In this document: one piece after another, positions 54,209 through 63,035 of the stretch
How the letters are laid out: each line of letters begins with the position of its first letter
Numbering within the stretch: position 1 is the first letter of the stretch
Assembly (NCBI GenBank): GCA_963705295.1
Contig: OY970065.1
Span: 832,001-896,000, forward strand
From: Parachlamydiales bacterium
GTDB lineage: Bacteria; Chlamydiota; Chlamydiia; Chlamydiales; Rhabdochlamydiaceae
Reading direction: 5' to 3'
DNA length: 64,000 nt
Program-made: the position numbers and the translations under genes
Notes under the pieces: generated by a model
The model's database searches: none
What the model was told of the DNA's origin: nothing
Seen by the model: only the letters and a program-made list of their open reading frames with translations

Positions 54209-54290
54209 GGGGGTGTCGCATAGCGGCAATTGCAAGGGACTGTAAATCCCTCGTCTTCGGACTTCGTGTGTTCGAGTCACACCGCCCCCA
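54209..54290 (+). tRNA. tRNA-Tyr(GTA); island integration site
   Basis: GGGGGTG/CGCCCCC acceptor stem, CTGTAAA anticodon loop, long variable arm. Confidence 0.97.
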
Positions 54291-54304
54291 AATCCTCTAT
54301 AGAA
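54238..54304 (+). repeat. attL core (67 bp)
   Basis: Identical to 62969-63035; starts in the anticodon stem and runs 14 bp past the tRNA. Confidence 0.96.
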
Positions 54305-54610
54305 ATTGATTCAAGCATTCACCAAAATCAGCCCTCTCAAAAATCTTAAATGGGGGGCCAGTGGGGTGATCGATCACAACATATCTCAACGCACTCATCC
54401 AGTTTTTGAAGTGTCTGAACATCGTTTAAGATAAAAAAATCCATAAGGTTTATTCTTTAAACACCCAAGATCCACCCATGCAATAAAAGATCTGGCTTAT
54501 ATTTGTTCATTTTCAAGGAGATATATAGAATTTAGCAGGGGATAATATATCCCTCGTTGTGAAAATTTCTCGGATTTTCTATGCTTCTCCATTTTCAAGG
54601 AAGGATAGCA

Positions 54611-55693
54611 ATGGCTGAAAGAGAGAATATTGAAAAACGAATTTCGAGTACTGGCAAAATCAGCTACAGAGCCAGAATTGAGCTCAAGGGATACAAAAGG
54701 CTATCTGCCACTTTTGCATCCAAAACAAAAGCTAAGCTTTGGAAGCAGCAGACCGAAGGTGCAATGCGAGAAGGGCGATATTTCAAAACGATTGAGTCAA
54801 GGAAGCATACTATTGGAGAACTAGCAGATAGATATATTCGCGATGTCCTTCCTACAAAACCCAAAAGCTATAATAAGCAGAAGGCTCAGTTGCTTTGGTG
54901 GAAAGATCAATTAGGGCATCGTCTTTTGTTTGACCTCACGCCTGCATTAATTGGAGAGTGTCGAGATGTTTTAGCTTCTCAAACCACGTATAGAGGTACG
55001 AAAAGATCCTCTGCAACAGTGGTGAGATATCTTGCTGCTCTTTCGCATGCCCTAAGTACTGCGCTCAAAGAATGGGGTTGGTTAGAAGACAGCCCCATGA
55101 GAAAAGTTACAAAACCAAAAGAACCTCGAGGACGTGTTCGTTACTTGAGTTCCGAAGAGCGACATGCATTATTAGAAGCATGTAAACAAAGCAGTTCTAG
55201 CTACCTTTATCCCATTGTAATTTTAGGTCTTTCAACTGGAATGAGACAGATGGAAATCCTGAATCTTAAATGGAAGGATATTGATTTGGAAAAGGGGATC
55301 ATAATTCTTCATGAAACAAAAAATGATGAAAGACGGTGTGTTCCATTAGCAGGGCATGCACTGGAACTCATCAAACAATTATCCGCTACACGTAAAAATA
55401 TTTCCCCCTTTCTTTTCCCTTCAAACAAGCTATCGAAGAACAAACCATATAATATTAGGTCTCCATGGGAAAATGCTGTTAAAATGGCTGGAATAAAGGA
55501 TTTTCGATTTCACGATCTAAGACACGATTTTGCCAGCCAACTTTTGGCTTCGGGAGCAAGCCTTGCACAACTTTCAGAAGTCCTAGGTCATAAAACTCTC
55601 CAAATGATCAAAAGATATGCACACCTTTGTCAATCGCAAGCAGCCGACGTAGTTGCAAAGATGAATGATAGGTTATTTGAAAGAATTGTATGA
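54611..55693 (+). CDS. int: Tyrosine recombinase / integrase
   Basis: TGMRQMEI (R), TKN (K), FHDLRH, LGHK, RYAH: full catalytic set. AAGGA RBS before ATG 54611. Confidence 0.95.
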   Translation: MAERENIEKRISSTGKISYRARIELKGYKRLSATFASKTKAKLWKQQTEGAMREGRYFKTIESRKHTIGELADRYIRDVLPTKPKSYNKQKAQLLWWKDQLGHRLLFDLTPALIGECRDVLASQTTYRGTKRSSATVVRYLAALSHALSTALKEWGWLEDSPMRKVTKPKEPRGRVRYLSSEERHALLEACKQSSSSYLYPIVILGLSTGMRQMEILNLKWKDIDLEKGIIILHETKNDERRCVPLAGHALELIKQLSATRKNISPFLFPSNKLSKNKPYNIRSPWENAVKMAGIKDFRFHDLRHDFASQLLASGASLAQLSEVLGHKTLQMIKRYAHLCQSQAADVVAKMNDRLFERIV

Positions 55694-55815
55694 GCAATGT
55701 TGTTTCTGATTATCAAATTAACTAAAATATTTATTTAAATAAAGTTATTTATAATATTGATATAAAGAGCCAATATATTCTATTGTTTTCTTTATCAAAT
55801 TTTAAAAGGAATACT

Positions 55816-56172
55816 ATGAATCGCTCTATAATTTTTGGCATCTCATTTTTTTCTTATATCTGTTCAGTAAACGCCACCCAAATTCAAGTACTTCCTCCAG
55901 CCAGTAGTTTTGGTGGGCAAATGGGCGAAAAACTGGGTAAAGGATTTAGCGAGGGACTAGAACAAGGGATTAAAGAAAGGCGGAGGAGAAAAGAACAGGA
56001 GAAAAATACAAAACTTCTTCAGCAGCTTCTAAAGGATTATCACCCTTCGAGTAACTTTGAGTATGTAATCCGCATTTTGCAAAGCTCACTTCCTGAAGAT
56101 TTAAAAAAACTTACGATCAATGTGTTGAATGAGCAGCATGAGAGATATTTAAAAGAAAACAGGAGAAAATGA
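55816..56172 (+). CDS. Hypothetical exported protein with glycine-zipper-like segment
   Basis: AAGGA RBS, signal-like N-terminus ending VNA, GxxxG run GGQMGEKLGKGFSEGLEQG. Confidence 0.7.
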   Translation: MNRSIIFGISFFSYICSVNATQIQVLPPASSFGGQMGEKLGKGFSEGLEQGIKERRRRKEQEKNTKLLQQLLKDYHPSSNFEYVIRILQSSLPEDLKKLTINVLNEQHERYLKENRRK

Positions 56173-56411
56173 TGAAAAAAGGACTTTCAAGTCTATTGCT
56201 GATATTTTTAACAACCTCCTCGCTTTATGGGGATTACTACTTAGATGAAAATGGCCAACTTGAAGGATTTGTTCAGGAGAACGGATCAAATGGATATATC
56301 ATCCTGGATAAGAATGGACATGTTGAATCATATATTCAAGAAAATGGTGATAGTGGGTCCATGATCTTAGATTCAGAAGGTCACGTAGAGGGTTTTTATC
56401 AAGAAGACTAG
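56169..56411 (+). CDS. Small exported protein of three ~21-aa repeats
   Basis: AGGAG RBS, signal peptide, (Y/I)LDxxGxxExxxQE repeated three times. Confidence 0.75.
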   Translation: MMKKGLSSLLLIFLTTSSLYGDYYLDENGQLEGFVQENGSNGYIILDKNGHVESYIQENGDSGSMILDSEGHVEGFYQED

Positions 56412-56419
56412 GGCTTGAT

Positions 56420-61237: not shown

Positions 61238-61472
61238 ATTTTTTCCTTTTTATGGTTGTTTAGGATTGTAGAGGCAAGCCTTTCAATGCGACGACTTGCT
61301 TTCGTCATTTTTGCAAACGCAAAGAATTTATTTTGAATTGCGGCGCTTTTTCTTAAAAATCCAGCCTAAGAAATAAAATGGTCGTAAATTTCTACAGAGA
61401 GAAAGGATGGTGAGCTATGAAAATGCCGCAAATGAATGCCGCAAGTAAGGTTTAGATAAAAAAGAAGTGTTG

Positions 61473-62162
61473 CTAATCTTTAATTTTAGCCGAGCATAAC
61501 TCATCAAATTCTGATGAAATGGTAAGGGCTATTAGCTTTTTTTTGACTAATTTAACAAGATTATCTTTACGATTTTTAGGAACATTTCCTTTCCCTTTTT
61601 CTAGGTATACTCTAGCAAAAGGCTGACAGTTTCGATTGCTTTCAATTTTGTTTGATATCATTCTCATTGTTCTTTGATCTAATAATTCAACATCTCGTGT
61701 ATCTCTATATTGTTTCATTATTTCAAGCACTTCTAAATCTGATTCGATCAGATTACGGGCTATATTGGAGGGGATTCCTGTTGGTTTTCCAATCAAATAT
61801 TTTTCAAGAAAACGATTCATATGTTGGCTGGGTTGTATATCAGAATGATATAACCAAAGAAGCCATTTCCCAAGATCAGATACCTTGATCCAATATCTAC
61901 GCTCTATATGAAGATCTGCGGAAGCTGGTAGTTTTCCACAATGGATAGCTTCAAGGGCTTTGTCGTAAATAATAAACTCTTCAGTAAAATGACTAAAATA
62001 TTCATACGATTCAAAATAAGATCCAGGAAATTTACCTGAAAATAAAGAAAATAGACCTGAAAGAGTCAACGCATCTTTTAGCAAAAATTTTTCAAAAACT
62101 ATGCTATCTTTTACTCCACTATTCGCAAATTGAATCATTACTTCAATGAAGCCGTCCGTCAT
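61473..62162 (-). CDS. Hypothetical protein
   Basis: AT-rich 229-aa ORF with ATGA overlap to the antitoxin stop. Confidence 0.7.
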   Translation of the reverse strand: MTDGFIEVMIQFANSGVKDSIVFEKFLLKDALTLSGLFSLFSGKFPGSYFESYEYFSHFTEEFIIYDKALEAIHCGKLPASADLHIERRYWIKVSDLGKWLLWLYHSDIQPSQHMNRFLEKYLIGKPTGIPSNIARNLIESDLEVLEIMKQYRDTRDVELLDQRTMRMISNKIESNRNCQPFARVYLEKGKGNVPKNRKDNLVKLVKKKLIALTISSEFDELCSAKIKD

Positions 62163-62455
62163 GCAGCGGCGGGTCTGATGGAGATGTCAAGATTACAAGC
62201 TTGCAAGATGGCTAAAAGGGATTGAAGACGAGGGTTGCCACGCTGTGATAGAGTGCGATATAAACTTTCTCTGTTTAGATCCGTCTCTTTGGCAAGCTTA
62301 GCAACGCCGCCATTTGCATCGGCGATGTCTTTTAAGGCGATAAGAAATACTTTTGGATCTTCATCTTCTAAAGCAGCATTTAGATAAGCTGCGGCAGCTT
62401 TAGGGTCTTGCAGACGTTTGAAAAGATGCTCTTTATAATTCCTGAATTTTTTCAT
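62159..62455 (-). CDS. HTH antitoxin (HI1420-like addiction module antidote)
   Basis: AAAYLNAALE...GGVAKLAKETDLNRESLYRTLS.RGNP; AAGGAG RBS; ATGA overlap with the toxin. Confidence 0.9.
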   Translation of the reverse strand: MKKFRNYKEHLFKRLQDPKAAAAYLNAALEDEDPKVFLIALKDIADANGGVAKLAKETDLNRESLYRTLSQRGNPRLQSLLAILQACNLDISIRPAAA

Positions 62456-62796
62456 TTTTTTCTCCTTGATTTGCTTTGTAAGCAATCCTCCCAAAATTCT
62501 TTGGCCTTCTTGATATCCTTTTTTTGGGAGGACTTGTCCCCTCCACATAACAAAATCACAATTGTTTTTCCTCTCATGCCATAATAAATACGATAACCCG
62601 GGCCGTAATGGATTTTCAGTTCATAAACTCCATTGCCTACAGGTTCTCTATTACCAAAATTCCCGCCCCTTACTCGAGCTAATCGGGTGCTGACTATTGC
62701 TTGCGCATCTCTGCTTAGGCGCGATTCCCATTCTGTATAAGGCTCCTTCCCTGAAGGCAATGCGTATAGCTCAATCTCAATGGAGTCCATATACAT
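62452..62796 (-). CDS. RelE/HigB-family toxin (HI1419-like)
   Basis: GNFG...ELKIHYGPGYRIYY...LLCGGDKSSQ.KDI. Confidence 0.92.
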   Translation of the reverse strand: MYMDSIEIELYALPSGKEPYTEWESRLSRDAQAIVSTRLARVRGGNFGNREPVGNGVYELKIHYGPGYRIYYGMRGKTIVILLCGGDKSSQKKDIKKAKEFWEDCLQSKSRRKK

Positions 62797-62800
62797 TCAT

Positions 62801-62829
62801 ATGGTAGCAAATAAGCTACATTAGGTCAA
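62801..62829 (-). promoter_or_regulatory. TA promoter with palindromic operator
   Basis: TTGACC-N17-TACCAT on the minus strand; GTAGC-N6-GCTAC at 62804-62819. Confidence 0.7.
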
Positions 62830-62968
62830 GCCTGTGGGGGATTCTTGGGGGAATAGATGGCAAAACGTCACAATTTTTGACAATGTATGCCAATCAGGAA
62901 ATTCGTCTAAGTTGCTAATCATACGGTTGTTAAGTGCTGTCTTTAATTGCTGATAGTTGGATTCTTAT

Positions 62969-63035
62969 GACTGTAAATCCCTCGTCTTCGGACTTCGTGT
63001 GTTCGAGTCACACCGCCCCCAAATCCTCTATAGAA
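62969..63035 (+). repeat. attR core (67 bp; 3' fragment of tRNA-Tyr)
   Basis: Identical to 54238-54304. Confidence 0.96.

Follow-up and report, generated by a model that had tools for sequence, protein, structure and literature searches.

The DNA analysed here, called the window, is a stretch of 64,000 nucleotides (nt) from the single-contig, 2,131,910-base genome of a Parachlamydiales bacterium (contig OY970065.1). Near its right end, between positions 54238 and 63035, lies an island of 8.8 kb inserted into a gene for tRNA-Tyr. It is confirmed that this is a real mobile island, and the family to which it belongs is very probably one of excisable, self-replicating elements that integrate at tRNA genes.

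Structure of the island

Two tRNA genes are found on the + strand at the left edge of the island by ARAGORN and Rfam, tRNA-Thr at 54130-54201 and tRNA-Tyr (GTA) at 54209-54290; an Rfam scan of the window gave these two tRNAs and no further RNA. A direct repeat of 67 bp, exact in both copies as given in a preliminary description of the locus, bounds the island at 54238-54304 and 62969-63035. The repeat covers tRNA-Tyr from its anticodon loop onwards and continues for 14 nt beyond the 3' end of the tRNA. These are its only copies in the genome, and over a longer 77 nt the identity is 95%. The tRNA-Tyr gene is still intact because insertion of the island restores its 3' part. The G+C content changes from about 0.44-0.46 in the left flank to 0.35-0.41 across most of the island.

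The island has 13 open reading frames (ORFs): the integrase gene and two small ORFs on the + strand, and a convergent leftward operon on the - strand. The operon reads, 5' to 3', toxin, antitoxin, 229-aa (amino acid) ORF, two small ORFs, DUF927 helicase, 204-aa ORF, primase, 188-aa protein and HGGxSTG protein. The features are:

54209-54290, +: tRNA-Tyr (GTA), the integration target (ARAGORN; Rfam RF00005, 52.4 bits)
54238-54304: left attachment site (attL), 67-bp exact repeat, tRNA-Tyr 3' part (repeat search; one of two genome copies)
54581-55693, +: tyrosine integrase, 370 aa (PF00589, E 7.5e-36; phrog_1, E 4.5e-69)
55783-56172, +: cargo ORF, 129 aa, no family match in Pfam, PHROGs and NCBIfam scans; cluster 6
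56169-56411, +: cargo ORF, 80 aa, N-terminus hydrophobic by eye, no family match
56420-56692, -: HGGxSTG protein, ~90 aa from the second Met, the open frame extending to 56779 (119 aa) (NF041373, 38.8 bits against a cut-off of 29)
56685-57251, -: 'cluster 3' protein, 188 aa, constant partner of the HGGxSTG protein (family scans, alignment, fold model)
57305-58291, -: DnaG-type primase, Zn ribbon and Toprim (PF08273, PF01807, PF13155; phrog_47, E 3.4e-23)
58294-58908, -: 204-aa ORF, no family match (tblastn, all-against-all comparison)
58605-58870: iteron-like repeat cluster, candidate origin (repeat counts, shuffles)
58905-60776, -: DUF927 replicative-helicase-type protein, 623 aa (PF06048, E 8.1e-91; phrog_1139, E 2e-96)
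60817-61044, -: small ORF, 75 aa, no family match in Pfam, PHROGs and NCBIfam scans
61016-61237, -: small ORF, 73 aa, in the position of the relatives' conserved AlpA/Xis-like gene (alignment A4)
61473-62162, -: 229-aa ORF, no family match, this island only (family scans, all-against-all comparison)
62159-62548, -: HI1420-type antitoxin (TIGR02684, 72.3 bits against a cut-off of 53.7; PF21716)
62452-62796, -: HI1419-type toxin of the RelE/ParE family, Gp49-like (TIGR02683, 114.2 bits against 62.85; phrog_3445)
62969-63035: right attachment site (attR), displaced copy of the tRNA-Tyr 3' part (repeat search; one of two genome copies)

All six catalytic residues of the integrase (R222, K247, H311, R314, H337 and Y346) are kept, in agreement with the preliminary description. 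Across ten related integrases H337 is nearly invariant and the other five are invariant. Three tyrosine recombinases are encoded in the host genome, two of Xer size and the third that of the island. None of the 13 ORFs matches a capsid, tail, large-terminase, relaxase or type IV secretion system (T4SS) family in Pfam, PHROGs or NCBIfam, and none a lysis or portal family, so the reported lack of capsid, tail, large-terminase and conjugation genes is borne out.

The island has the replication module of its own that had been claimed for it, with both a DUF927 helicase and a DnaG-type primase. The Zn-ribbon domains of the primase score over the Pfam cut-offs and Toprim_2 falls slightly under (20.0 against 22.1 bits). 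The DUF927 protein alone found no relative in IMG/VR. The 204-aa ORF between the two genes had been labelled a small winged helix-turn-helix (HTH) protein, a label that was not confirmed, no family in Pfam, PHROGs or NCBIfam matching it. Of this ORF only the C-terminal half is kept in two relatives, L057 and L045, and in the latter it forms a fusion with the primase.

The iteron-like repeats fall in the poorly conserved 5' half of this ORF. Between 58605 and 58870 GGTGAGAA occurs five times, in both orientations, and CGTGTGGAA four times, one copy with one mismatch. The window holds eight copies of GGTGAGAA in all, a number reached in none of 100 shuffles. The real gene of the 204-aa ORF may be shorter, with the origin upstream of it.

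The ORF at 61016-61237 had been called Xis-like on first inspection. No family model supports this: the ORF has no Pfam match, and among 11 aligned relatives in the same position one has a weak HTH_17 match (E 0.072). Weak tblastn matches to it were found in L075, L095 and L096, and a profile of the AlpA-position protein gave nothing below E 0.1 against PDB chains.

The toxin-antitoxin pair reported earlier is a type II pair of the HI1419/HI1420 type, the two genes being adjacent and both over their curated cut-offs. The true start of the antitoxin is probably the later Met at 62455, because the frame as listed overlaps the toxin gene. A pair 82-88% identical to that of the island is present at 3215-3846 of L059 (G006:C17), about 8 kb from a tRNA-Tyr, in an insert from a different species that has no other likeness to the island. 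The pair seems to move or persist independently of the island core.

Related islands and circular forms

DUF927 relatives with 44-55% identity were found in 38 of 300 other genomes of the order, spread over many families, and matches to the HGGxSTG model in 76 of 299 other genomes. Across the order the two genes tend to be found in the same genomes (odds ratio 8.2). Twenty regions around relatives were fetched and searched for terminal repeats; eight have exact repeats of 43-100 bp, spaced 5.8 to 13.2 kb apart. Seven of these inserts carry an integrase and measure 9.1-13.2 kb. The eighth, L061, is a 5.8-kb insert at tRNA-Tyr in a species of the same genus and has no integrase; it contains a homologue of the 129-aa cargo ORF (tblastn, 33% over 93 aa). 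The repeat is the 3' part of an annotated tRNA in seven of the eight (Leu 2, Met 2, Tyr 2, Asn 1), no tRNA having been called at L045, and in six of the seven with an integrase (Leu 2, Met 2, Asn 1, Tyr 1). It had been considered that such islands might always be embedded in larger integrative and conjugative elements (ICEs) or prophages; the seven integrase-bearing relatives are instead bounded by their own repeats, and none of them lies within a prophage or ICE.

An all-against-all protein comparison of nine inserts defined a core of integrase, small protein, helicase, primase, cluster 3 and HGGxSTG protein. Integrase is present in eight of the nine, DUF927 and primase in seven each, cluster 3 and HGGxSTG protein in six each, and the small protein upstream of the helicase in five. 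The gene order sought in chlamydial genomes does recur, the full core being held by five of the seven integrase-bearing relatives, and the same core in the same order is found in Chlamydiota, Parachlamydiales and Parachlamydiaceae sequences, as expected of an island in a chlamydial tRNA-Tyr. In L062 a D5/DUF5906-type helicase takes the place of DUF927. The helicase of the family is exchangeable; what stays constant is cluster 3 with the HGGxSTG protein, the two genes that close the replication operon.

None of the 90 ORFs of the eight related inserts matched a capsid, portal, tail, large-terminase, relaxase or T4SS family. The idea of a minimal virus with unrecognised capsid genes was rejected, the unknown non-core ORFs not being kept among relatives. 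Long frames with the HGGxSTG domain elsewhere in the order were also considered as prophages and proved to be further islands.

The same tRNA-Tyr, beside the same TtcA-like gene, is occupied in L046, from another family of the order, and one Chlamydiota-group sequence with the island core also has the TtcA / tRNA-Thr / tRNA-Tyr flank. The sampled species of the genus have the left flank and the tRNA pair in common, at ~70% DNA identity, and carry other DNA behind tRNA-Tyr, which refutes fixation of the island in all relatives. The inserts at tRNA-Tyr in G006 and G015 have unrelated genes, and neither a second att copy nor an empty site was found there. The tRNA-Tyr site is thus a hotspot with turnover. 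Just outside attR, at 63076-63727 on the - strand, lies a HicA toxin gene (PF07927, E 4.3e-11) with a HicB-like HTH antitoxin gene; as this pair is 85-93% identical in two other species of the genus, it is attributed to the host or the hotspot rather than the island.

Metagenome contigs were pattern-scanned with the cluster-3 alignment, giving at least 292 relatives. Two of the contigs scanned, L071 and L131, have identical 127-bp ends, which points to circular assemblies. L071 (10,446 bp) encodes an integrase, a 424-aa ORF, two small ORFs, a DUF3987 helicase, a DnaG-type primase, cluster 3, the HGGxSTG protein and cargo, and has a single copy of the tRNA-Tyr 3' part just upstream of the integrase. 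Its left arm is 82% identical to the attR side of L046 over 196 nt, and its right arm 79% identical to the attL side over 136 nt, an arrangement that looks like the one expected of attP on an excised circle. Excision, as proposed earlier for the island, is in this way supported for its family, through a circular relative with a single tRNA-Tyr attP. The other contig, L131 (6,283 bp), represents a small plasmid that encodes ParA, a serine recombinase, RepA, an HTH_17 protein, cluster 3 and the HGGxSTG protein.

The cluster-3/HGGxSTG pair and terminases

The HGGxSTG-type gene of the preliminary description was verified by NF041373. Its product has a Cys-Cys-Cys-His knuckle followed by two helices, with C12, C34 and H37 invariant and C24 nearly so. 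A fold model (pLDDT, the predicted local distance difference test, 81.5) gave the same knuckle and two helices, its best match in BFVD (E 5e-3) being unnamed. The protein matches phrog_9231, a terminase small subunit (TerS), at positions 49-96 of 240 (E 1.8e-5), and six of ten scanned island HGGxSTG proteins match this model, at its positions 41-96.

When the domain was sought by tblastn in 50,697 phage records, it was found in five phages, three of which were looked at. In Pasteurella phage Pm86 the N-terminus of ORF53 (196 aa) aligned with the HGGxSTG profile with an hhalign probability of 98.6% (E 4.8e-16). ORF53 is a TerS by phrog_1889 (E 1.1e-24) and lies 3 nt upstream of the gene for the terminase large subunit (TerL), which is followed by a portal gene (phrog_145) and an annotated head-morphogenesis gene. 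In Bacillus phage Flasso the gene that comes first after the annotated pac site encodes the domain and also matches phrog_1889; Staphylococcus phage MVC_VPHSA1 has it in CDS0002, which lies upstream of HNH, TerL and portal genes. The island protein thus corresponds to the N-terminal domain, the first ~90 residues, of a class of small terminases. The N-terminal part of characterised TerS proteins binds DNA. Compared with that class, the island protein has the N-terminal knuckle domain, and neither the length of ~190-250 aa nor an adjoining TerL.

Its partner, cluster 3, matches no known family and gave no relative with a known function; it is modelled (AF2, pLDDT 77) as five helices followed by a conserved RYRRxGEQxVxVxH...AIxG tail that is disordered. 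The two genes are adjacent in every island seen and are fused in one ORF in L228 (287 aa) and L229 (184 aa), each of which matches both profiles. In L230 (G123:C9, 9483-11055) two tandem cluster-3 genes are followed by a 190-aa HGGxSTG protein, so that cluster-3 copy number and HGGxSTG length vary within the family. Prediction of a complex between cluster 3 residues 38-188 and the HGGxSTG protein gave a score of 0.02 (mark 0.32) and counts neither way. Neither sequence profile found anything below E 0.1 among PDB chains. The ESM Atlas gave unnamed clusters only, one of them mostly Uroviricota, which is taken as a lead only. No paper was found under the HGGxSTG domain name.

Beyond the order, the pair is frequent among Alphaproteobacteria, and it is present in other phyla, including Verrucomicrobia. 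Its neighbours at 80 loci include DUF3987 (14), DnaG-type primase (9), DUF927 (8), Toprim_3 (6), D5-type (5), DUF3631 (4) and RPA (3) proteins. Cluster 3 is also carried by 13 PLSDB plasmids, of which five are typed mobilisable.

Terminases were found on sister elements. L064, a 14.2-kb sequence and the sole IMG/VR match, encodes ParA, integrase, AlpA, a DEAD helicase, a D5-type primase-helicase, a GP3_package TerS, TerL (516 aa; phrog_2, E 1.2e-30), cluster 3 and the HGGxSTG protein. Its TerS and TerL were not found in the other fetched loci or in the host genome. TerL genes (phrog_2) are present in 44 of 300 genomes of the order, and five places were looked at. Two of them, L243 and L247, are small islands with integrase and primase genes that each adjoin a tRNA-Met; both have the L064 TerL subtype and neither has a portal or capsid. 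In L242 this subtype lies ~6.5 kb from a DUF927 island, no tRNA having been found in the 20 kb retrieved, and L246 is a further integrase element with TerL. The subtype, phrog_2472 + phrog_26724 + phrog_2, thus recurs in L243, L247, L242 and L064 with no portal or capsid nearby, and looks like a terminase lineage living on satellites. Elements that have a terminase and no shell of their own need the shell of another. The cluster-3/HGGxSTG pair fills the same architectural place as the terminases of these sister islands.

The fifth place, L248 (G268:C102, 9522-18587 of a 35-kb contig), has TerL, a portal (phrog_156, E 7e-85) and a major head protein (phrog_1357, E 1e-27); genes for RusA and an O-like initiator lie upstream of this tailed-phage morphogenesis module. 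It is a candidate for a chlamydial tailed phage, or else a binning error.

Candidate modes of transfer

The best single explanation of the island is that of a phage satellite, which rests on domain kinship and on the sister elements and not on any helper. In the mechanism proposed for it, in which the origin and the trigger, like the packaging role and the helper itself, are inferred, the integrase would excise the island on some signal, probably phage infection, with or without the AlpA-position protein. The excised circle would replicate from the iteron cluster at 58605-58870. The cluster-3/HGGxSTG pair would serve as a two-piece TerS-like adaptor that marks island DNA for the TerL of the helper, and the island would leave the cell in the capsids of a helper tailed phage, with the toxin-antitoxin pair and the small ORFs as cargo and stabilisers. 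The statement as a whole, of a satellite-like island that integrates, excises, replicates itself and travels in helper capsids, is given an even chance of being correct. The preliminary description had called for an unrecognised helper, either a tailed phage or a conjugative element. Identification of the HGGxSTG protein as a TerS N-terminal domain favours the tailed-phage type, but no helper family that was searched for is present in the host genome.

Several results weigh against the satellite explanation. The island HGGxSTG protein, at ~90 aa, is without the C-terminal two thirds of phage TerS. Cluster 3 has no TerS similarity by profile or PHROGs (0 matches) and was not found in the 50,697 phage records with two queries; its fold gave best Foldseek matches of E 0.14-0.19 against PDB/BFVD, none with E <= 0.001, and, with VIA-align, generic helix hairpins as the best match (Z 7.3). 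In the host genome searches with PF03354 and phrog_2 (TerL), PF05065 (HK97 capsid), phrog_156 (portal) and phrog_1357 (head protein) all gave no match, the blank for phrog_1357 meaning little since its control matched in no genome. As part of a metagenome bin, L248 may have been binned wrongly. The HGGxSTG gene is present in 17 of 44 genomes with TerL against 60 of 256 without (odds ratio 2.06, p 0.04, uncorrected for kinship), a co-occurrence that is weak and also partly circular because some TerL genes lie inside such islands, and 64 of the 90 genomes with HGGxSTG or DUF927 have neither TerL nor TraC. The pair is also found on 5-6-kb RepA/ParA plasmids and on larger alphaproteobacterial plasmids; these sites and the replication-module neighbours fit a replication or regulatory role equally well.

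Such a role is central to the view of the island as an integrative plasmid-like episome with no phage link, moving by vesicles, by lysis and uptake in a shared amoeba host, or by transformation. The pair would then be a DNA-binding replication accessory or a transcription regulator, having only the zinc-knuckle domain in common with TerS. Its place directly after a replication module of whichever family at the 80 loci is in keeping with this, as are its presence on small RepA/ParA plasmids such as circular L131 and on the 13 PLSDB plasmids, the lack of TerS similarity in cluster 3 and the failure to find helper families in the host genome. Elements comparable to these are enriched in vesicles, according to the available part of one source (bioRxiv 10.1101/2020.12.28.424599). 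Against an episome stand the position of the HGGxSTG domain at the canonical TerS place in three phages, with two of the proteins being TerS by PHROG, the presence on sister islands of TerS and TerL, whose only role is in packaging, and the L064 pair, which comes directly after TerS and TerL. It is considered rather unlikely. Conjugation of the island by the T4SS of a co-resident plasmid or ICE, through an unrecognised origin of transfer (oriT) or relaxase, is considered very unlikely. F-type TraC genes are present in 27 of 301 genomes of the order, five of the 13 cluster-3 PLSDB plasmids are mobilisable by type, and T4SS groups occur on chlamydial plasmids and chromosomes, as stated in the available part of PMC7846284, where primase and tRNA are unmentioned. 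Against this, no ORF of the island or of the related inserts has a relaxase, coupling-protein or T4SS match in Pfam, the host genome is without VirD4 (PF02534), TraC (PF11130) and Relaxase (PF03432), other relaxase families not having been searched, and HGGxSTG presence is unrelated to TraC (7 of 27 against 70 of 273, odds ratio 1.0). Of the co-occurrence with tailed-phage or tra genes that was to be looked for, therefore, a weak one with TerL was found but none with TraC. A decaying prophage remnant or fixed, immobile island would fit the lack of an empty site in a close relative, the nearest genomes being other species at ~70% DNA identity. This too is very unlikely: both 67-bp repeats are identical, all 13 ORFs are open with the integrase residues kept, the same compact architecture with intact repeats occurs at Leu, Met, Asn and Tyr tRNAs in distant families, and the relative L071 exists as a circle.

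The earlier assignment to the 'PICI/P4 type' proved too specific, as the island shows the features of phage-inducible chromosomal islands (PICIs) in part but P4 hallmark genes were not found. Set against the usual PICI gene list, and especially against the SaPI (Staphylococcus aureus pathogenicity island) type with its own small terminase, the island has an integrase, a small protein in the AlpA/Xis position, its own primase and helicase, a size of ~9-13 kb or about a third of a phage genome, cargo of the defence or toxin-antitoxin kind and, closing the replication operon, a TerS-related gene, and no virion genes. It differs in that the TerS-related part is the N-terminal domain only, paired or fused with an unrelated helical protein, in that no Stl-type repressor, capsid-size or Ppi-type gene was recognised in it, and in the hosts of its family, which are Chlamydiota and other non-model phyla. 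P4-like satellites have in common with it an integrase and primase/helicase module at a tRNA and a size of ~10 kb. The P4 hallmarks are Psu, Sid, Delta and the alpha-type primase-helicase; none is matched in the island, which has DUF927 and a separate DnaG-type primase in place of the alpha protein. A DUF927-family helicase on a small integrative element (PF06048) is also known as Cch of the staphylococcal cassette chromosome (SCC). The island helicase matches NF047345 with E 2.3e-18, but its 66 bits are far below the cut-off of 700. The SCC recombinase is a serine Ccr with its site in rlmH, whereas the island has a tyrosine integrase at a tRNA.

Two families of marine elements were compared by description. 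General satellite features were taken from the available part of PMC9618062. Virion-encapsidated integrative mobile elements (VEIMEs), as far as they are described there, are likewise small integrative elements with primase/helicase, AlpA and TerS homologues; they differ in having been found inside virus particles. Chlamydiae are unmentioned in that paper (PMC9618062). Tycheposons of Prochlorococcus have as hallmarks an integrase, an excisionase and an exchangeable primase/helicase, in the available part of their source (bioRxiv 10.1101/2020.12.28.424599). According to the same part, they resemble the island in their tRNA-targeting tyrosine recombinase, their partial-tRNA repeats, the occurrence of PICI-like as well as cargo-bearing forms in one family and the tRNA hotspot with successive inserts. 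They differ in that their PICI-like forms carry a full TerS or a capsid protein and not cluster 3 with HGGxSTG, and in their hosts, which are free-living marine cyanobacteria and not intracellular bacteria. Papers on chlamydial islands, satellites and mobile elements, supplements aside, gave no description of the island family, and for DUF927 with chlamydia only work on archaeo-eukaryotic primases turned up in the literature as far as it was available. Phage terminase and tail genes are reported on two chlamydial plasmids in the available part of PMC7846284.

The satellite-like islands, the sister islands with TerS and TerL and the L248 contig are indirect evidence of tailed phages that infect intracellular chlamydiae, and their sequences can be used to look for such phages. 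To our knowledge, only small single-stranded DNA microviruses have been characterised as chlamydial phages. A wider proposal is more tentative, and somewhat more doubtful than not: that never-isolated tailed phages infect environmental chlamydiae, that the island family is their satellite, marked by a hitherto unnoticed two-piece small terminase and present in roughly one in four genomes of the order as well as in Alphaproteobacteria, Verrucomicrobia and other groups, and that the module defines satellites and plasmids packaged by phage terminases across phyla. The pair is a candidate for a new small-terminase architecture. The integrase with its att site in the 3' part of tRNA-Tyr, the compact replicon and the natural circle are possible genetic tools for environmental chlamydiae.

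The counts of promoter-like sites (18, with 20.4 expected) and of terminator-like sites (5, with 8.1 expected) did not exceed chance. The variable cargo of the related inserts includes HepT/MNT, AbiE, an MmeI-type restriction enzyme, and ankyrin and leucine-rich-repeat proteins, which ties the islands to phage defence and host interaction. In L047 (G057:C1, 11177-17614) an MmeI-type restriction-modification enzyme, a DEAD helicase, a T5orf172 protein and a PD-(D/E)XK nuclease form a likely anti-phage block. Ankyrin or leucine-rich-repeat proteins are encoded in L044 (13698-14633), L058 (8903-9952) and L045 (13418-16777) and, given the eukaryote type of these domains, the islands may spread host-interaction genes among chlamydiae.

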